15,478 bases of DNA. It comes from Escherichia coli. Lineage in GTDB: Bacteria; Pseudomonadota; Gammaproteobacteria; Enterobacterales; Enterobacteriaceae. The DNA lies in NCBI RefSeq assembly GCF_003334815.1, contig NZ_QOWO01000055.1, one strand, 5' to 3'. The notes under the pieces were generated by a model. That model saw only the letters and a list, made by a program, of their open reading frames with translations, was not told the origin of the DNA and made no database searches. Below, piece after piece: positions 5,169 through 15,478 of the stretch. The translations under genes and the position numbers were made by a program. How positions within the stretch are numbered: position 1 is the first letter of the stretch; each line of letters begins with the position of its first letter.

Positions 5169-5244
5169 TGGCTCCTCTGACTGGACTCGAACCAGTGACA
5201 TACGGATTAACAGTCCGCCGTTCTACCGACTGAACTACAGAGGA
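5169..5244 (-). tRNA. asnV: tRNA-Asn (anticodon GUU)
   Basis: Reverse complement is TCCTCTGTAGTTCAGTCGGTAGAACGGCGGACTGTTAATCCGTATGTCACTGGTTCGAGTCCAGTCAGAGGAGCCA, 76 nt with encoded CCA and anticodon loop CTGTTAA. Gene name assigned by synteny (between nac and erfK in K-12). Confidence 0.96.
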
Positions 5245-6588: not shown

Positions 6589-7539
6589 GTGAATTTCCAA
6601 CAACTAAAGATAATCCGCGAGGCTGCACGTCAGGATTACAACCTGACAGAGGTTGCGAATATGCTTTTTACCTCACAGTCCGGCGTCAGCCGTCATATTC
6701 GGGAACTGGAGGATGAACTTGGCATCGAAATATTTGTTCGACGAGGTAAGCGACTGCTGGGCATGACTGAACCGGGCAAAGCATTACTGGTCATTGCAGA
6801 ACGTATTCTGAATGAAGCCAGTAATGTTCGTCGGCTTGCAGACCTGTTTACCAACGATACGTCTGGCGTTCTCACTATTGCAACGACGCATACTCAGGCA
6901 CGTTATAGCTTGCCTGAGGTCATTAAAGCTTTTCGCGAACTTTTCCCGGAGGTTCGGCTGGAGCTAATCCAGGGTACGCCACAGGAAATTGCGACGTTGT
7001 TGCAAAATGGCGAAGCTGATATTGGTATCGCCAGCGAGCGTTTGAGTAATGACCCGCAGCTCGTCGCCTTCCCGTGGTTTCGTTGGCACCATAGTTTGCT
7101 TGTTCCACTCGATCATCCCTTGACGCAAATTACACCGTTGACGCTGGAATCAATAGCGAAGTGGCCGTTAATCACTTACCGACAGGGGATTACGGGGCGC
7201 TCACGTATTGATGACGCATTTGCCCGCAAAGGTTTGCTGGCAGATATTGTATTAAGTGCGCAGGATTCTGATGTCATTAAAACCTATGTTGCTCTTGGGC
7301 TGGGGATTGGATTAGTTGCCGAACAATCCAGCGGCGAACAAGAGGAAGAGAATTTAATCCGTCTGGATACGCGGCATCTTTTCGATGCCAATACTGTATG
7401 GTTGGGACTGAAGCGAGGGCAACTTCAACGTAACTATGTCTGGCGCTTTCTGGAACTTTGTAATGCAGGACTGTCAGTTGAGGATATCAAGCGCCAGGTG
7501 ATGGAGAACAGTGAAGAGGAAATTGATTATCAGATATAG
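6589..7539 (+). CDS. cbl: LysR-family regulator Cbl (CysB-like; sulfonate-sulfur utilisation activator)
   Basis: 316-aa ORF starting with GTG at 6589 (MNFQQLKIIREAARQDYNLTEVANMLFTSQSGVSRHIRELEDELG...), immediately downstream of nac as in E. coli. Confidence 0.93.
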   Translation: MNFQQLKIIREAARQDYNLTEVANMLFTSQSGVSRHIRELEDELGIEIFVRRGKRLLGMTEPGKALLVIAERILNEASNVRRLADLFTNDTSGVLTIATTHTQARYSLPEVIKAFRELFPEVRLELIQGTPQEIATLLQNGEADIGIASERLSNDPQLVAFPWFRWHHSLLVPLDHPLTQITPLTLESIAKWPLITYRQGITGRSRIDDAFARKGLLADIVLSAQDSDVIKTYVALGLGIGLVAEQSSGEQEEENLIRLDTRHLFDANTVWLGLKRGQLQRNYVWRFLELCNAGLSVEDIKRQVMENSEEEIDYQI

Positions 7540-7544
7540 CAAGA

Positions 7545-7568
7545 AGCCCGCTATAAAAGCGGGCTTTT
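7545..7568. terminator. Bidirectional rho-independent terminator between cbl (+) and tRNA-Asn (-)
   Basis: Stem AGCCCGC (7545-7551), loop TATAAAA, stem GCGGGCT (7559-7565), then TTTT. Confidence 0.7.
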
Positions 7569-7576
7569 CAGAAATT

Positions 7577-7652
7577 TGGCTCCTCTGACTGGACTCGAAC
7601 CAGTGACATACGGATTAACAGTCCGCCGTTCTACCGACTGAACTACAGAGGA
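7577..7652 (-). tRNA. asnU: tRNA-Asn (anticodon GUU)
   Basis: Identical 76-nt sequence to the other two tRNA-Asn copies (reverse complement of 7577-7652). Name by synteny (between cbl and yeeO). Confidence 0.96.
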
Positions 7653-7668
7653 ATCGCTGTTGAGGCAC

Positions 7669-7696
7669 ATCTTAACGGCGAAAAATCTTTTGTCAA
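7669..7696 (-). promoter_or_regulatory. Sigma70 promoter of tRNA-Asn (asnU)
   Basis: Minus strand: -35 TTGACA (7691-7696), 16-bp spacer, -10 TAAGAT (7669-7674), GC-rich discriminator GTGCCTC, then tRNA. Confidence 0.6.
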
Positions 7697-7812
7697 ACCC
7701 GATTTTTAAATTTCCCAACTGTTTGCCGTTTCTATCAACAGTTTGTTGCATTTGCAGACAATTTGTTGGCGAAAATCTTTGCAGCTTTGCTGATTCTCCC
7801 TCATTATTTGAA

Positions 7813-9300
7813 ATGTGGTTTCACTTTCTGCAATTAAGGTCGGCTTTGAATATCTCCTCTGCTTTACGCCAGGTTGTTCACGGCACTCGCTGGCACGCTA
7901 AACGCAAGAGCTACAAAGTGTTGTTCTGGCGCGAGATAACCCCGCTTGCTGTTCCTATCTTCATGGAGAATGCCTGTGTCCTGTTGATGGGTGTCCTGAG
8001 CACTTTTCTGGTCAGCTGGCTGGGAAAAGATGCGATGGCCGGCGTGGGATTGGCGGACAGCTTCAATATGGTCATTATGGCTTTTTTTGCTGCTATCGAT
8101 CTTGGTACTACTGTCGTTGTGGCATTTAGTCTCGGTAAGCGGGATCGACGACGAGCGAGGGTGGCGACGCGGCAGTCATTGGTGATCATGACGTTGTTTG
8201 CCGTACTGTTGGCAACGCTTATTCATCATTTTGGCGAACAAATTATTGATTTCGTCGCGGGTGATGCCACGACAGAAGTTAAAGCACTGGCGTTGACTTA
8301 TCTGGAGCTGACGGTACTCAGTTATCCAGCAGTTGCCATCACTTTGATTGGTAGCGGGGCACTTCGTGGTGCAGGGAATACGAAAATACCGCTACTGATT
8401 AACGGTAGCCTGAATATTCTTAATATTATTATTAGCGGCATATTGATTTACGGCCTTTTCTCCTGGCCGGGACTGGGATTTGTCGGGGCAGGGCTGGGTT
8501 TAACCATTTCTCGTTATATTGGCGCAGTTGCAATTTTGTGGGTGCTGGCGATTGGTTTTAATCCTGCGCTAAGGATTTCGTTAAAGAGCTATTTTAAACC
8601 GCTGAATTTTAGCATTATCTGGGAAGTCATGGGGATTGGTATTCCCGCTAGTGTCGAATCAGTGTTATTTACCAGTGGTCGGTTATTAACCCAAATGTTC
8701 GTTGCCGGGATGGGGACCAGTGTTATTGCCGGAAATTTTATCGCGTTTTCAATTGCGGCTCTTATCAACTTACCCGGAAGTGCGCTCGGCTCTGCTTCTA
8801 CGATCATTACAGGCCGAAGGTTGGGGGTAGGGCAGATAGCGCAAGCAGAGATTCAGTTGCGGCATGTGTTCTGGCTGTCCACTCTTGGATTAACGGCCAT
8901 CGCCTGGCTAACGGCTCCCTTTGCCGGGCTTATGGCATCGTTTTACACCCAGGATCCACAGGTTAAACATGTCGTTGTGATTCTGATTTGGCTAAATGCT
9001 TTATTTATGCCTATTTGGTCCGCCTCATGGGTGCTACCCGCTGGATTTAAAGGTGCTCGTGATGCCCGTTACGCCATGTGGGTTTCGATGTTGAGCATGT
9101 GGGGTTGTCGGGTTGTCGTCGGTTATGTGCTGGGAATCATGCTTGGCTGGGGTGTGGTTGGTGTCTGGATGGGAATGTTTGCCGACTGGGCTGTGCGGGC
9201 TGTGCTGTTTTACTGGCGAATGGTTACTGGACGTTGGCTATGGAAATACCCTCGACCCGAGCCGCAAAAGTGTGAAAAAAAGCCAGTTGTGTCGGAATAA
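7813..9300 (+). CDS. yeeO: MATE-family efflux transporter YeeO (reported flavin/dipeptide exporter)
   Basis: Start placed at ATG 7813 (MWFHFLQLRSALNISSALRQ...), giving 495 aa with multiple hydrophobic transmembrane segments. The ORF-track 546-aa version starts at TTG 7660 and runs through the asnU promoter. Confidence 0.88.
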   Translation: MWFHFLQLRSALNISSALRQVVHGTRWHAKRKSYKVLFWREITPLAVPIFMENACVLLMGVLSTFLVSWLGKDAMAGVGLADSFNMVIMAFFAAIDLGTTVVVAFSLGKRDRRRARVATRQSLVIMTLFAVLLATLIHHFGEQIIDFVAGDATTEVKALALTYLELTVLSYPAVAITLIGSGALRGAGNTKIPLLINGSLNILNIIISGILIYGLFSWPGLGFVGAGLGLTISRYIGAVAILWVLAIGFNPALRISLKSYFKPLNFSIIWEVMGIGIPASVESVLFTSGRLLTQMFVAGMGTSVIAGNFIAFSIAALINLPGSALGSASTIITGRRLGVGQIAQAEIQLRHVFWLSTLGLTAIAWLTAPFAGLMASFYTQDPQVKHVVVILIWLNALFMPIWSASWVLPAGFKGARDARYAMWVSMLSMWGCRVVVGYVLGIMLGWGVVGVWMGMFADWAVRAVLFYWRMVTGRWLWKYPRPEPQKCEKKPVVSE

Positions 9301-9400: not shown

Positions 9401-9476
9401 TCCTCTGTAGTTCAGTCGGTAGAACGGCGGACTGTTAATCCGTATGTCACTGGTTCGAGTCCAGTCAGAGGAGCCA
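9401..9476 (+). tRNA. asnW: tRNA-Asn (anticodon GUU)
   Basis: TCCTCTGTAGTTCAGTCGGTAGAACGGCGGACTGTTAATCCGTATGTCACTGGTTCGAGTCCAGTCAGAGGAGCCA. Name by synteny (between yeeO and yeeN). Confidence 0.96.
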
Positions 9477-10987: not shown

Positions 10988-12442
10988 TTATCGGAACGGC
11001 GGCTCATTAAAGGTTCGTAATTTACGCGAATGCAGTCGGTCGCCTTCTGCGCGCAGCAAATCGATCGCCCGAATGCCAATTTGCAGGTGTTCGGAAATAG
11101 CACCTTCATAAAAACGGTTAGCCTGACCGGGAAGTTTAATCTCGCCATGCAACGGTTTATCTGAAACACACAGTAGTGTCCCGTATGGCACGCGGAAACG
11201 ATATCCTTGCGCGGCAATGGTTGCACTTTCCATATCAATTGCTACGGCCCGGCTTAAGTTAAAACGAAGTGCAGAAGCTGAGTAACGTAATTCCCAGTTC
11301 CTGTCATCTGTGGTTACCACAGTACCAGTACGTAGCCGCTGTTTGACTTCCTCACCGGGCCTGCCACTCACCAGCTTGGTGGCGTCATAAAGCGCACGTT
11401 GCACTTCAGCAATGCTCGGAATAGGAATATCGGGCGGCAGAACCGCATCAAGAACGTGGTCATCGCGTAAATAAGCGTGTGCAAGTACATAATCGCCAAT
11501 GGCCTGACTTTCACGTAATCCGCCACAGTGACCAATCATCAACCAGACATCCGGGCGTAGCACTGCCAGATGATCGCAGATGGTTTTAGCATTGGAAGGT
11601 CCCACGCCAATATTCACCAGAGTAATACCCTGAGCATCGGCGGTAATTAAATGCCATGCTGGCATCTGGTGTTTTTTCCATGCAAGGTCGGAAATGGCTT
11701 CTTCTGGCGCTTCGGTTTCGGCGGTGATCCAGTTCCCGCCAGCACAAGAAAGGGCAATGTAAGGACTATCAGGATCGAGGATCTGGCTGCATCCCCAACG
11801 AACGAATTCATCCACATAACGTGTGTAGTTGGTAAACAAGACGAACGGCTGAAAATGTTCAACTGGCGTACCGGTATAATGGCGCAACCGTGCGAGGGAA
11901 AAATCGACGCGGCGCGCATCAAAATGCGATAGCGGGGAGAATTCCGTTGGATGATAAATGCCGTCTGCAGTTTCATCGCCAATTTGCGCCAGTTCTGTTG
12001 TCGGGAAGTAGCGAGTTAACCCAGCGCTCATTGAGCGATCAAGTGTCAATTCAGAGCCATCGATGACATAAGGATAAGGGATTTCATGCTGCGAGGGTTG
12101 CACAGAGATATGCGCACCATAATCCTGATACAGCAACGTAAGTTGTTCATTAAGATACGAACGAAAGAGAGTAGGGCGAGTAATCGTGGTGGTGTAGCTG
12201 CCTGCGTGAGTAAAACGACCAAATGCGCGCGTTTTGGGGGGATTGGTTGTGCTACCGTCCCAGGTTACGGTCAGTGATGGATAGACAAAAAGACCTTGTT
12301 TGCGGGCGTTTTCATCAGGTAATTCGCCACTTGTAATATAGTTGCCAATGGCGTTGCGTAATGCGACTACAGATTGCTCATACAGCGCGTCGAGTTTATC
12401 CAGTGCCTGAGCTGGGGTCAGACCGGAGCCCTTATTATTCAT
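10988..12442 (-). CDS. amn: AMP nucleosidase
   Basis: Start at ATG 12442 (MNNKGSGLTPAQALDKLDALYEQSVVALRNAIGNYITSGELPDENARKQGLFVYPSL...), 484 aa; RBS AGGAG just upstream on the minus strand. The ORF-track start at 12598 is an extension that overlaps the shiA 3' end. Confidence 0.93.
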   Translation of the reverse strand: MNNKGSGLTPAQALDKLDALYEQSVVALRNAIGNYITSGELPDENARKQGLFVYPSLTVTWDGSTTNPPKTRAFGRFTHAGSYTTTITRPTLFRSYLNEQLTLLYQDYGAHISVQPSQHEIPYPYVIDGSELTLDRSMSAGLTRYFPTTELAQIGDETADGIYHPTEFSPLSHFDARRVDFSLARLRHYTGTPVEHFQPFVLFTNYTRYVDEFVRWGCSQILDPDSPYIALSCAGGNWITAETEAPEEAISDLAWKKHQMPAWHLITADAQGITLVNIGVGPSNAKTICDHLAVLRPDVWLMIGHCGGLRESQAIGDYVLAHAYLRDDHVLDAVLPPDIPIPSIAEVQRALYDATKLVSGRPGEEVKQRLRTGTVVTTDDRNWELRYSASALRFNLSRAVAIDMESATIAAQGYRFRVPYGTLLCVSDKPLHGEIKLPGQANRFYEGAISEHLQIGIRAIDLLRAEGDRLHSRKLRTFNEPPFR

Positions 12443-12513
12443 GTGTGTCTCCTGTTCCATACAATTACCGCACATCCGATAGTATGTCACAGAAATGTGA
12501 AACAAAAGTGTAA

Positions 12514-12537
12514 GGCGAAGATCGGATGATCTTCGCC
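12514..12537 (-). terminator. Stem-loop just downstream of shiA (putative terminator, in the amn upstream region)
   Basis: Perfect 10-bp inverted repeat GGCGAAGATC / GATCTTCGCC with 4-nt loop GGAT, 7 bp past the shiA stop. Confidence 0.5.
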
Positions 12538-12543
12538 AGGCTA

Positions 12544-13860
12544 TCAAGCGCGTTGACTGTCTTTCATCAACAAAGCGGTCATTGCGGAAATCAGGCATCC
12601 AGCCAGCAAATAAATGGCGACGCTATGCCAGTTCCCGGCAAAGTAAGTGATGAGTGCAGCGGCAATAAAAGGTGTAAATCCACCGCCAACCACACTGGCA
12701 ACCTGATAACCGACTCCAGCGCCACTATAGCGATAACTGGCACCAAACATTTCGGTAAACATCGGTTGTTGCACACACACCACCATGTCATGCGCAATGT
12801 TTGCCAGCATTATGGAGAAGAAAACTATCCAGAAAATAGATTGTGCTTCAAGCGCCATAAAGAAAGGAAATGCGCTCAACGTTCCGATTAACGCACCTGT
12901 GATATAAACCCTACGGCGACCAAAACGATCGGCAAGCCAGGCAAAACAGGGAATTGTCAGGCAGCTTAATCCACCTACCAGCAAACCAATATTAAGGAAA
13001 AGTTCGCGCGGTAGCCCCATATTCTGGGTTGAATAATTAAGTGCAAAGGCAGTAACGATGTACATCGTCAGCAATTCGCACAGTCGTAGCGCAATAATCT
13101 TCAGGAAAGCACCGGGATGTCGTAACAGCGCTTCGATAACCGGGATGCGTTTTTTCGCGGCAGCTTGATAATGTTGCTGTTGTTCAAATTCCGCGGACTC
13201 TTCCATGCCATTGCGCACCCACAATGCTCCCAGTACCAGTACGATGCTAAACAGGAAAGGAATGCGCCAGCCCCAGCTTAAAAACTGTTCGTCAGTCGTC
13301 ATCATACTGATCAATGAAACCAGTCCGGTTGAAAGCAGTAAACCTACACCGTAGCCAACTTGTACACCGCTACTGTAAAAGGCTTTTTTATTTTTCGGTG
13401 CACTTTCAACGGAAAGCAACGCCGCGCCTCCCCATTCGCCGCCGACGGCAAATCCCTGAATGGCACGCAGTGTCACCAGCAAAATAGGTGCCCACCACCC
13501 AATGGTCGAGAATGAAGGAAGAATACCAATCAAGGCTGTCGCGATGCCCATCATCCAGACGGTCAGCATTAACATGCGCTTACGTCCCAGTCGGTCGCCA
13601 AAGTGACCGAAAATGACACCGCCGAGCGGACGGAAAAGGAATCCGACGCCAAAGGTAGCAAATGCGGCGAGCGTTCCCATCGCCGGGCTTACTTGCGGGA
13701 AAAACTCGCGATTAAACACCAGTGCGGCGGTGATGCCATAGAGTAAAAAATCATACCAGTCGACGACGGCACCAGCGAAGCTGCCTAACGCAGCTCGTCG
13801 GGCGCGACTTAACGAAAGCGTCCCTTCATCGGGACGAGTGGAGATGAGCGTGGAGTCCAT
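12544..13860 (-). CDS. shiA: Shikimate transporter ShiA (major facilitator superfamily)
   Basis: 438-aa polytopic membrane ORF (MDSTLISTRPDEGTLSLSRARRAALGSFAGAVVDWYDFLLYG...), MFS signature GHFGDRLGRKR; length matches E. coli ShiA. Confidence 0.93.
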   Translation of the reverse strand: MDSTLISTRPDEGTLSLSRARRAALGSFAGAVVDWYDFLLYGITAALVFNREFFPQVSPAMGTLAAFATFGVGFLFRPLGGVIFGHFGDRLGRKRMLMLTVWMMGIATALIGILPSFSTIGWWAPILLVTLRAIQGFAVGGEWGGAALLSVESAPKNKKAFYSSGVQVGYGVGLLLSTGLVSLISMMTTDEQFLSWGWRIPFLFSIVLVLGALWVRNGMEESAEFEQQQHYQAAAKKRIPVIEALLRHPGAFLKIIALRLCELLTMYIVTAFALNYSTQNMGLPRELFLNIGLLVGGLSCLTIPCFAWLADRFGRRRVYITGALIGTLSAFPFFMALEAQSIFWIVFFSIMLANIAHDMVVCVQQPMFTEMFGASYRYSGAGVGYQVASVVGGGFTPFIAAALITYFAGNWHSVAIYLLAGCLISAMTALLMKDSQRA

Positions 13861-14174: not shown

Positions 14175-14777
14175 ATGTTTTTAGCATCATTGTTGAGACG
14201 TATTGCATTTAGTTACTACGATTATAAAGCTTATAATTTCAATATTGAAAAAACAGACTTTGTTGTCATCCATATTCCCGATCAGATTGGCGATGCTATG
14301 GCCATCTTTCCTGTTATTCGGGCGCTTGAATTGCATAAAATTAAGCATCTATTAATTGTTACGTCGACAATTAATTTAGAAGTCTTTAATGCGCTCAAAC
14401 TTGAACTGACTAAATTAACATTAGTTACAATGACTATGCAGGATCACGCAACATTAAAAGAAATAAAAAATTTAGCGAAGAACATAACACTGCAATACGG
14501 TACGCCGGATCTTTGTATAGAGGCGATGCGTAAAAAGAACCTGAAAACGATGATATTTATCAGTCAGTTGAAAGCAAAAACGAATTTTCAGGTTGTTGGT
14601 ATAACCATGAATTGCTTCTCCCCTTTGTGCAAGAACGCGTCCCGTATGGATCAGAAACTCCGGGCTCCCGTACCTATGACATGGGCATTTATGATGCGTG
14701 AGGCGGGTTTTCCAGCAGTCAGGCCAATATATGAATTGAATCGCCACGGGTTTAACAGACACCTCAGAGTCATTTAA
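14175..14777 (+). pseudogene. yeeL: yeeL-like putative glycosyltransferase (family 9 heptosyltransferase-like N-terminal region), 3'-truncated remnant
   Basis: The 200-aa ORF has an N-terminal pattern resembling GT9 heptosyltransferases (VVIHIPDQIGDAMAIFPVIRALE) but is far shorter than the ~320-350 aa typical for the family. AT-rich body until about 14600, then a GC-richer tail that runs into the IS3-family element. Position divergent from shiA matches K-12 yeeL, which is a pseudogene there. Confidence 0.5.
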
Positions 14778-15050
14778 GATGACTTAAAGAGAGGTGCCCA
14801 TGAGTGGTAAGCGTTATCCCGAAGAGTTTAAAATTGAAGCAGTCAAACAGGTTGTTGATCGCGGTTATTCTGTTGCCAGCGTTGCAACACGTCTCGATAT
14901 CACCACCCACAGCCTTTACTCCTGGATAAAGAAGTACGGTCCGGATTCTTCCACTAATAAAGAACAGTCAGATGCTCAGGCCGAGATCCGCCGTCTCCAG
15001 AAAGAGCTGAAGCGGGTTACCGACGAACGGGACATATTAAAAAAAGCCGT
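14732..15050 (+). mobile_element. IS3-family insertion sequence (possibly IS600-like), 5' portion; left boundary approximate; interrupted at 15050/15051 by IS30
   Basis: Contains an IS3-family OrfA. Upstream sequence GGGTTTAACAGACACC carries the GGACAC-like motif common in IS3-family left ends. Left end placed 60-70 bp upstream of the orfA ATG by analogy; not verified. Confidence 0.55.
14800..15050 (+). pseudogene. IS3-family transposase OrfA (HTH plus leucine-zipper protein), C-terminally truncated by the IS30 insertion
   Basis: MSGKRYPEEFKIEAVKQVVDRGYSVASVATRLDITTHSLYSWIKKYGPDSSTNKEQSDAQAEIRRLQKELKRVTDERDILKKA, then reads into the IS30 end. Programmed -1 frameshift-type heptamer A_AAA_AAA at 15039-15045. 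The ORF-track start at GTG 14794 is 2 codons upstream. Confidence 0.75.
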
Positions 15051-15478
15051 TGTAGATTCAATCTGTCAATGCAACACCCCTTTCAATTATCTCTTTCGGT
15101 GTTTTGAACTTCAGTGTCTTTCTCGGTCTGTTGTTTAGCTGAGCAGCAACCAGATCTAGTTCATGTTGAGTATATTGGGCAAGACATGTCTTTTTAGGAA
15201 AGTACTGCCGAATTAGCCCATTTGTGTTCTCATTTGTTCCCCGCTGCCAAGGACTCTGAGGATCGCAGAAGTAAACTTTAACGCCGGTGCTGACAGTAAA
15301 TTCTAGATGTCTGGCCAGTTCCATTCCTCTGTCCCATGTCAGTGATTTTCTGAGTTCTGACGGTAAACTCAGGAATTTGTCGGTAAGAGCCTGATTTACT
15401 GAGACAGAATCTTTGCCCCTGAGTCTAAGGATGATCGTATAACGTGATTTTCGGTCTACAAGTGTGGCTATATGAGAG
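15051..15478 (-). mobile_element. IS30 insertion sequence, one end (terminal inverted repeat begins TGTAGATTCAAT at 15051); continues beyond the window
   Basis: The terminal sequence TGTAGATTCAATCTGTCAATGCAAC matches the remembered IS30 inverted repeat, and the adjacent ORF on the minus strand is the IS30 transposase C-terminus. Confidence 0.8.
15058..15478 (-). CDS. insI: IS30 transposase (DDE, IS30 family), C-terminal 139 codons; N-terminus lies outside the window
   Basis: The minus-strand frame is open from the window edge: SHIATLVDRKSRYTIILRLRGKDSVSVNQALTDKFLSLPSELRKSLTWDRGMELARHLEFTVSTGVKVYFCDPQSPWQRGTNENTNGLIRQYFPKKTCLAQYTQHELDLVAAQLNNRPRKTLKFKTPKEIIERGVALTD. It contains the IS30-family signature PWQRG-NENTNGL-RQYFPK. 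Confidence 0.85.
   Translation of the reverse strand, partial: SHIATLVDRKSRYTIILRLRGKDSVSVNQALTDKFLSLPSELRKSLTWDRGMELARHLEFTVSTGVKVYFCDPQSPWQRGTNENTNGLIRQYFPKKTCLAQYTQHELDLVAAQLNNRPRKTLKFKTPKEIIERGVALTD

Follow-up and report, generated by a model that had tools for sequence, protein, structure and literature searches.

The DNA analysed here (the window) is a stretch of 15,478 nucleotides from Escherichia coli, in which comparison with RefSeq recovers the E. coli gene order cbl-asnU-yeeO-asnW. The tRNA-Asn (GTT) gene asnU occupies positions 7577-7652 of the minus strand, as found by ARAGORN and by the Rfam tRNA model (72.6 bits) and as annotated in RefSeq. On the plus strand the mechanically called yeeO ORF runs from a TTG at 7660, 8 nt away from the 5′ end of asnU (7652), to 9300 and encodes 546 aa. 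Its first 51 codons (7660-7812, 153 nt) precede an ATG at 7813, from which a protein of 495 aa opening with MWFHFLQ can be translated, and a second TTG at 7846 leaves 484 aa (7846-9300). Public records differ over which start to use. In K-12 MG1655 the RefSeq protein (b1985, NP_416491.3) has 547 aa and begins at a TTG equivalent to window position 7657, which is CTG in the window. For the identical strain RefSeq places the start at ATG 7813 (WP_014639941.1), and 495 aa is also the length given in most RefSeq E. coli records. The equivalent of TTG 7846 was chosen, by RefSeq or by the depositor, in E. albertii (484 aa), Enterobacter, Kosakonia, Pluralibacter, Klebsiella pneumoniae MGH78578 (478 aa) and three E. 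coli genomes (484 aa, WP_047644735.1). That a single well-known E. coli gene has three N-termini in reference databases, of 547, 495 and 484 aa, makes the question mainly one of practical value.

A consensus scan of 7300-8100 returned a single sigma-70-like match (10 of 12 positions), and it belongs to asnU: a minus-strand core promoter at 7669-7696 with a -35 TTGACA (7696-7691), a 16-nt spacer and a -10 TAAGAT (7674-7669). Between the -10 and the mature 5′ end of the tRNA lie the discriminator GTGCCTC, which is rich in GC, and a short leader whose last letters are CGAT. The same architecture, including the discriminator G(T/C)GCC(T/C)C, is common to all three tRNA-Asn genes of the window (asnU, asnV and asnW), and the columns 7653-7700 are almost invariant among 73 loci from several genera. 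Sigma-70 stable-RNA (tRNA) promoters are marked by near-consensus hexamers 16-18 nt apart, a discriminator rich in GC and a mature 5′ end close downstream; we assign these elements to that class, with a predicted transcription start site (TSS). Where the tRNA was found (72 loci), 265-273 nt separate its 5′ end from the FWREI anchor, with two exceptions, a constancy expected of a tightly packed regulatory region. The original prediction had the ORF from 7660 running over the asnU promoter; the scan agrees, placing the minus-strand -35 and -10 within the first 13 codons of that ORF, and asnU, TTG 7660 and ATG 7813 also lie where they had been reported.

Does the extension upstream of ATG 7813 encode protein? 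Orthologous sequences were compared from about 30 enterobacterial genera, 81 in all; in just 12 does the frame stay open as far as the tRNA, all of these from Escherichia species, seven Citrobacter species or K. pneumoniae. It is shut by stops or frameshifts in the other 69, which include E. albertii, Salmonella, six Citrobacter and one genome labelled E. coli. Variability over 7660-7812 is flat with respect to codon position (0.237/0.221/0.227 at positions 1/2/3). Compared with Citrobacter, the extension differs at 12, 10 and 13 nucleotides at the three codon positions and carries 3-4 synonymous against 19-21 non-synonymous codon changes; for the gene body the figures are 76 synonymous and 18 non-synonymous. 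The amino-acid identity of about 60% to Citrobacter is best attributed to nucleotide conservation of promoter DNA, since the changes show no codon-position bias and non-synonymous ones outnumber synonymous ones by about 20 to 3. In profile searches with the 546-aa ORF, neither the NCBIfam YeeO profile nor the Pfam profiles reached into 7660-7812. Neither a frame kept open among orthologues nor the third-position excess and surplus of synonymous changes of a genuine coding sequence was thus found, and the open frame of 51 codons is not beyond chance and shared ancestry. The earlier view of this extension as an annotation trap is borne out: when homologues were checked across it, no conservation of the coding type emerged. 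As far as comparison can tell, the segment is ordinary promoter DNA rather than protein, made up of the asnU promoter together with the DNA upstream of it, and of the promoter region of yeeO.

The K-12 annotation would be right if yeeO were translated from TTG 7660 (7657 in K-12) into 546 or 547 aa, from a transcript starting within asnU or running antisense through it. A GAGGA lies 7 nt before TTG 7660 (-6.0 kcal/mol), NP_416491.3 keeps the 547 aa, and the single TSS that has been published for yeeO (Kim 2012; 7 reads) falls inside asnU at window 7632. This is K-12 position 2057895 in older genome-version coordinates, 25 nt before the annotated 7657 start; the same study gives no TSS for the Klebsiella orthologue. 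However, the GAGGA is the 5′ end of the tRNA read on the opposite strand and is there for the tRNA, the TTG used in K-12 is a CTG in the window, and by eye no -10-like hexamer is seen before 7632. A hairpin with a short T-run between cbl and asnU, which the scan did not flag, makes read-through from cbl unlikely. Together with the closed frames, the flat codon-position pattern, the excess of non-synonymous changes, the conserved asnU core promoter beneath the first codons and profiles that stop short of the extension, this brings the long form close to refuted by comparison, and we give it next to no credence in spite of the frame being open in Escherichia, several Citrobacter and K. pneumoniae.

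A coding signature begins exactly at 7846, where the variability at codon positions 1/2/3 becomes 0.166/0.097/0.344 and then 0.046/0.002/0.329. The codon itself (codon -26) is TTG in 80 of the 81 orthologous sequences and GTG in one, and is never replaced by a synonymous Leu codon; 11 other conserved Leu columns each use 3-6 codons, with a TTG share of 0-18%. Six nucleotides before it lies a Shine–Dalgarno sequence, TAAGG (7835-7839), with a predicted anti-SD duplex of -5.9 kcal/mol. The ‘Arg’ codon that would be read at this sequence, three codons before the TTG, is AGG in 75 of 77 loci and otherwise GGG or GGA, unlike real Arg columns, which are mostly CGN. The spacer between the two is 6 nt long throughout, with letters that vary. 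The NCBIfam profile NF007562 identifies the ORF product as a member of the EmmdR/YeeO family of MATE transporters (909.5 bits, cut-off 465), its positions 2-469 of 470 aligning to residues 66-533 of the 546-aa ORF so that the profile begins 2 residues after TTG 7846. Two tandem MatE domains (PF01554) occupy residues 99-259 (E=1.6e-36) and 329-490 (E=3.4e-20) of the same ORF. A conserved start codon, a Shine–Dalgarno sequence at proper spacing and the onset of the coding signature thus coincide at this position, and the conserved start of yeeO is probably TTG 7846, giving a protein of 484 aa. TTG is a rare and weak start codon, which counts against this assignment. An ATG at codon -15 (MRTPWY), used in some Kosakonia records (471 aa), was also considered as the family start and rejected: E. 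coli and many genera lack it, and the codons upstream of it (-25 to -16) vary synonymously, Arg -19 for instance being CGC, CGT or CGA.

The original prediction had preferred the 495-aa form starting at ATG 7813 and had suggested looking for a ribosome binding site before it. This preference finds no support in the comparison. No Shine–Dalgarno sequence precedes the ATG (anti-SD duplex +0.4 kcal/mol), and its distance to the TTG is variable among orthologous loci (30, 31, 32, 33, 34 or 44 nt). Of 81 orthologous sequences, 34 have it in frame and open, and the remaining 47 could not use it to begin yeeO: it is out of frame in 28 loci, followed by an in-frame stop in 11, missing from 4 and unusable in 4 further loci. 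In ten of the loci with a stop the codon right after the ATG is TAG, TAA or TGA, and in the eleventh the stop lies farther down. Within E. coli itself a TAA equivalent to 7831 is present in G1/2, G6/7 and G8, whose RefSeq annotation even so has an intact YeeO of 484 aa beginning at the TTG, and the same stop recurs in locus L007 of the comparison. A query carrying this stop matched no more than 3 of 5426 genomes; nearly every E. coli genome has an open, in-frame ATG. The 11 codons from ATG to TTG (7813-7845) again display flat variability (0.202/0.184/0.153) and, against Citrobacter, 1 synonymous and 6 non-synonymous changes; they most likely represent 5′ UTR or operator and not conserved coding sequence. 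With neither an upstream Shine–Dalgarno sequence nor a conserved frame to the gene body, ATG 7813 is, on this comparative evidence, probably not the conserved yeeO start.

Why then is the ATG so often present? It lies within a putative operator of the PlaR/KdgR type (IclR family), the 21-bp sequence ATTTGAAATGTGGTTTCACTT at 7806-7826. It is the one sequence of the window that fits the PlaR box ATnTGAAACnnnGTTTCAnTT, a published palindrome also written ATnTGAAACnnnGTT(T)CAnTT; the fit has 1 mismatch, where 0.01 matches are expected from 200 shuffles. The PlaR consensus as printed has 20 letters for a ‘21-bp’ box, and GTTTCA was assumed in the search. The operator core TGAAAY-N3-GTTTCA keeps this position in 67 of 82 loci, the set of 82 including two duplicate copies of this E. 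coli region. The ATG would owe its conservation as DNA to the operator half-site TGAAAT, which contains it, and not to a protein starting there; a conserved ATG is no evidence of a start codon, and the yeeO case may serve as a warning in this respect. In the genomic SELEX study of PlaR (PMC6958661) the top gSELEX peak lies in the yeeO-asnU spacer; the portions consulted report no in vivo control of E. coli yeeO by PlaR or KdgR, and no in vivo expression data for the E. coli gene were found. Rodionov 2004, quoted in PMC6127512, predicted yeeO to be a KdgR target. A PlaR/KdgR box pinned on the annotated ATG would tie the flavin and multidrug exporter YeeO to the pectin/galacturonate regulon.

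YeeO of E. coli could nevertheless start at ATG 7813, either alone or together with TTG 7846 as two proteoforms. Initiation would have to be independent of a Shine–Dalgarno sequence, and it would be leaderless if transcription began with the A of the ATG, as the -10 proposed below (7802-7807) would predict. ATG is the intrinsically stronger start codon, it is the choice of the RefSeq annotation, and it opens an uninterrupted frame in K-12 as well as in the window and in almost every E. coli genome, so that some initiation from it is possible in this species. In addition, the K. pneumoniae phosphopeptide MLFQH(p)FSLR (PMC5445275 supplement) corresponds to the N-terminus of the ATG form; its N-terminal side is not tryptic and it looks like a true N-terminus, albeit a single peptide from a small phospho-His dataset, which hints that the ATG may also be used. 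Set against this are the missing Shine–Dalgarno sequence, the embedding in an operator that accounts for the nucleotide conservation, the stops and frame shifts behind the ATG in many loci, the absence of periodicity and the surplus of non-synonymous changes in the 11 codons, their position outside the NCBIfam profile, and the stop-carrying E. coli strains that are annotated as intact from the TTG. We consider this form of YeeO unlikely, at perhaps a fraction of the weight given to the TTG. Less likely still is that a weak antisense transcript from 7632 is occasionally translated to give a new, lineage-specific 62-residue N-terminal extension in Escherichia, part of Citrobacter and Klebsiella; a milder version has E. 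coli making both the 495- and the 484-aa proteoforms. The former would mean that a YeeO N-terminal extension is encoded by tRNA-promoter DNA, the latter that a longer proteoform arises from an AUG that is leaderless or lacks a Shine–Dalgarno sequence inside a repressor's operator. For the E. coli yeeO start we found no initiation-site profiling or N-terminal proteomics data, and TRAINSPOTTER holds no yeeO entry.

Upstream of the operator, and overlapping it at 7806-7807, we propose a yeeO promoter at 7779-7807 on the plus strand, composed of a -35 TTGCAG (7779-7784), a 17-nt spacer and a -10 CATTAT (7802-7807). The -35 sits inside the invariant block CTTTGCAG, and the conservation pattern is that of a block, a spacer of fixed length and variable sequence, and a second block. 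Both hexamers match the consensus weakly (3/6 and 4/6) and were not reported by the sigma-70 consensus scan. A low-resolution gSELEX peak for the RpoS holoenzyme has been located near window 7795 ± 100 bp (PMC5493296), and no yeeO TSS at the proposed promoter was found in the available portions of the Cappable-seq and SMRT-Cappable-seq supplements. Several other explanations for the conserved blocks were tried and rejected. The invariant TTGCA within CTTTGCAGG, with a TGG about 10 nt upstream, resembles a -24/-12 sigma-54 promoter in Citrobacter and Enterobacter, but E. coli (11 nt), Kosakonia and Kluyvera depart from the GG-N10-GC spacing, and others do not have it at all. CRP, FNR, Fur, TyrR and marbox motifs fitted neither in spacing nor in sequence. 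A conserved leader peptide starting at the ATG is not apparent, as the out-of-frame ORFs range from ‘M*’, ‘MWF*’ and ‘MEFQLSR*’ to 28-40 aa; that they often end at a TAA is a by-product of the TAAGG Shine–Dalgarno sequence. A search for a riboswitch or other structured RNA in the leader with Rfam (E<=1) gave only the tRNA and chance matches, all within 7500-7652, and the TTGAAA/TTTCAA palindrome is better explained as a DNA operator than as RNA structure.

Our preferred reading, to which we assign a probability of roughly three in four, is that 7653-7845 is divergent regulatory DNA and that yeeO starts at TTG 7846. The segment would be a compact region devoid of coding sequence, with the asnU promoter (-35 at 7691-7696, -10 at 7669-7674) and its upstream region serving the minus strand, and a weak yeeO promoter (TTGCAG 7779-7784 and CATTAT 7802-7807) serving the plus strand. 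Transcription of yeeO would start near 7813. An IclR-family regulator, PlaR or KdgR, bound at 7806-7826 would overlap this promoter and may repress it by occlusion. A short leader with the TAAGG at 7835-7839 would then lead to TTG 7846 and the 484-aa MATE transporter, and the ORF of 546 or 547 aa would merely reflect a frame that is open by happenstance in Escherichia, some Citrobacter and Klebsiella. Conservation, frame breaks, the Shine–Dalgarno and start-codon signature and the operator match come from the present analysis, and PlaR binding from the literature. The outcome is a refinement of the annotation; it contains no new biology and no new type of element or mechanism.

The protein itself is that of the known EmmdR/YeeO MATE family, represented by YeeO of E. 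coli (b1985) and EmmdR of Enterobacter cloacae. The window protein is 97-100% identical to E. coli YeeO, with matching cbl-asnU-yeeO-asnW synteny and two MatE domains, and the protein body shows no difference; only the annotated N-terminus varies between records. The operator likewise resembles those described for PlaR (YiaJ) and KdgR at yiaK, kduI, kdgT and eda, with a palindromic TGAAA-N5-TTTCA in a box of 21 bp and AT-rich sequence on either side. Of the 16 specified positions of the PlaR box it agrees with 15; it adjoins or covers the putative -10 and falls within the top gSELEX peak. The acting repressor at yeeO could be either of the two proteins. Finally, the 7660 ORF is in most respects a generic over-long ORF call, in which the longest-ORF rule takes a rare start codon far upstream and the resulting extension lacks homolog support and covers the control region of another gene. 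It differs in that the usual remedy of moving to the first ATG also seems wrong, since the conserved start is a TTG farther downstream and the ATG appears to be conserved for a reason that lies at the level of the DNA.

The cbl, asnU, yeeO and asnW genes were identified by comparison with K-12. E. coli strain 52F4 matches this region of the window at 100% identity, and 5,214 of 5,426 complete E. coli genomes carry it, as cbl / tRNA-Asn / yeeO. Annotations of the yeeO start disagree. The mechanical ORF (7660..9300, plus strand, 546 aa) opens with a TTG only 8 nt from the 5′ end of asnU, a tRNA-Asn (GTT) gene on the minus strand (7577-7652). In K-12 MG1655 RefSeq gives a 547 aa protein (b1985, NP_416491.3) from a TTG 4 nt from asnU; this codon reads CTG in the window (7657-7659), which makes the annotated start a polymorphic position within the species. 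In the strain identical over this region, RefSeq starts yeeO at ATG 7813 (495 aa), and many orthologues from other genera are annotated shorter still, opening with MNV../LNV..ALRQ, which corresponds to TTG 7846 of the window. The original prediction had regarded the 51 codons of 7660-7812 as an annotation trap and preferred the ATG; the distance to the tRNA, the codon count and the 495 aa protein opening with MWFHFLQ are all as it described.

We compared 80 yeeO loci from ~30 enterobacterial genera (one scan of species-representative genomes), which with the window makes 81 sequences, with codon numbers counted relative to the conserved FWREI motif (window 7924). Only 12 of the 81 keep the frame open as far back as the tRNA: the window itself, six Citrobacter, four further Escherichia genomes and K. 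pneumoniae. Stops or frameshifts close it in the remainder, including E. albertii, Salmonella, six Citrobacter and L007, an orthologous locus labelled E. coli. Column variability by codon position is flat across 7660-7812 (0.237/0.221/0.227), compared with 0.046/0.002/0.329 in the gene body. Relative to the open-frame Citrobacter sequences, the extension differs at 12/10/13 sites by position, the changed codons being synonymous in 3-4 cases and non-synonymous in 19-21, while the first 150 codons past the FWREI motif differ at 23/2/83 sites, with 76 synonymous and 18 non-synonymous changes. The ~60% amino-acid similarity to Citrobacter thus reflects nucleotide conservation of regulatory DNA, and on the criterion of amino-acid conservation among homologs the extension fails as coding sequence. 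We therefore consider it, with a probability of about 95%, an artefact, promoter DNA in which a reading frame happens to be open, as had been suspected.

The asnU promoter (minus strand; -35 TTGACA 7696-7691, 16 nt spacer, -10 TAAGAT 7674-7669) was the sole sigma-70-like site found by a consensus scan within 7300-8100. Within 4.3 kb the window has three tRNA-Asn (GTT) genes, and every one has its own promoter of the same architecture. In the other two (5169-5244, minus; 9401-9476, plus) the order is TTTGACA, a 16-17 nt spacer, TAATAT, a GC-rich discriminator, then a leader whose last bases, CGAT, precede TCCTCTGTAG. A GCAAAC block ~30 nt upstream of the -35, common to the tRNA-Asn genes of the window, is possibly a shared upstream activator site. 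Given this common layout and the near invariance of 7653-7700 in an alignment of 73 orthologous loci, the first ~13 codons of the long ORF overlie a conserved core promoter for the tRNA, and the SD-like GAGGA preceding TTG 7660 is just the tRNA 5′ end read on the complementary strand. Between the convergent cbl and asnU, a hairpin (AAGCCCGC-TATAAAA-GCGGGCTT, 7543-7567) with flanking T/A runs looks like a bidirectional terminator, missed by a simple scan because its T-run is short.

A second long-ORF trap in the window is the 536 aa amn call (10988-12598, minus): AMP nucleosidase profiles begin at residue 49-62, K-12 amn has 1455 nt (484 aa), and the surplus 5′ codons of the call run into the 3′ end of shiA (12544-13860, minus). 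Beyond shiA lie an IS3-family transposase N-terminal fragment (14794-15138, plus; 64.7 bits, below cut-off) and a 200 aa ORF (14175-14777, plus) that matched nothing in NCBIfam. The right end of the window thus seems to differ from K-12 (yeeL/yeeJ).

Several observations point to TTG 7846 as the conserved and probably main start of yeeO. The equivalent codon is TTG in 80 of 81 sequences and GTG in the other, never a synonymous Leu codon, while the 11 other conserved Leu columns of the first 125 codons each use 3-6 different codons with TTG in the minority. Three codons upstream, what looks like an Arg codon reads AGG in 75 of 77 loci and GGG or GGA in the others, whereas true Arg columns are mostly CGN; the 6 nt separating it from the TTG are fixed in length and free in sequence, and the anti-SD duplex reaches -5.9 kcal/mol. 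Codon periodicity begins at this TTG. The EmmdR/YeeO profile curated in NCBIfam (470 positions, 909 bits) begins two residues past the TTG, and the first MatE domain 36 residues past it. A 40-nt query matching only with a CAA-to-TAA change at 7831 identified three complete E. coli genomes (G1/2, G6/7 and G8) with a stop at this position, in which RefSeq annotates an intact 484 aa YeeO from the TTG.

The preference for ATG 7813 was not supported by the comparison. No SD was seen in the 20 nt upstream (best anti-SD duplex +0.4 kcal/mol), and the 11 codons from the ATG lack periodicity (0.202/0.184/0.153), with 1 synonymous and 6 non-synonymous changes relative to Citrobacter. Of the 77 sequences bearing the FWREI motif (76 loci plus the window), 34 have the ATG in an open frame, and 11 have it in frame but followed by a stop, in ten cases as the very next codon. 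In 28 the ATG is out of frame (distances of 31, 32, 34 or 44 nt) and in 4 it is absent; it is likewise unusable in four loci without the motif. That it serves in E. coli as the sole or an additional start appears unlikely. A phospho-His study of K. pneumoniae NTUH-K2044 does list a YeeO peptide, MLFQH(p)FSLR (PMC5445275 supplement), which corresponds to the N-terminus of the ATG form and, being preceded by Glu, is not tryptic. Although this is one peptide in a small dataset, it keeps in play the use of the ATG where the frame allows. GAAATG is nonetheless nearly invariant in the alignment, which is explained by its position within the 21-bp palindrome ATTTGAAATGTGGTTTCACTT (7806-7826).

At one mismatch, the palindrome is the window's only match to the published PlaR (YiaJ) box ATnTGAAACnnnGTT(T)CAnTT (0.01 expected). 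Its core, TGAAAY-N3-GTTTCA, occupies the equivalent position in 67 of 82 loci, two of the 82 being re-fetches of this E. coli region. Variability in the block peaks at 7816-7817, which correspond to two of the box's three central 'n' positions, and it is also here that stop codons arise. In two loci (L059 and L063; Pseudescherichia / 'Escherichia sp. ESNIH1') a 12-nt insertion (CTCTCGCACTCT-like; window-equivalent 7825-7835) between operator and SD lengthens the leader and leaves both intact.

Upstream of the operator, the alignment reveals an invariant CTTTGCAG block (7777-7784), a variable stretch with a fixed length of 17 nt, and TCAT[CT]AT. From this arrangement we infer a weak yeeO promoter (-35 TTGCAG; -10 CATTAT, 7802-7807), which received no call in the consensus scan and for which no TSS was found in the published TSS data searched. 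Transcription from it would start at ~7813-7816, and the operator would then span -10 to +13, a usual layout for a repressor. A low-resolution RpoS-holoenzyme gSELEX peak near 7795 (PMC5493296) could equally be attributed to the asnU promoter ~100 bp away. Kim et al. (2012) list a 7-read TSS at K-12 position 2057895 (older genome-version coordinates), assigned to b1985 with a 25-nt leader. It corresponds to 7632 (plus strand) of the window, antisense within asnU at the complement of tRNA position 21, and no -10-like hexamer is seen before it in the window sequence. We take it for noise or a minor antisense start, perhaps a library artefact of an abundant, modified tRNA rather than a promoter.

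The operator at yeeO is already in the literature, as a prediction and as a site bound in vitro. PMC6127512 cites Rodionov et al. (2004) for the prediction that KdgR targets yeeO, and Shimada et al. (2019; PMC6958661) report their highest PlaR gSELEX peak in exactly the yeeO-asnU spacer and a resemblance between the PlaR and KdgR boxes. The outcome is thus a refinement of the start site, of low general interest, all elements at yeeO-asnU being of known kinds.
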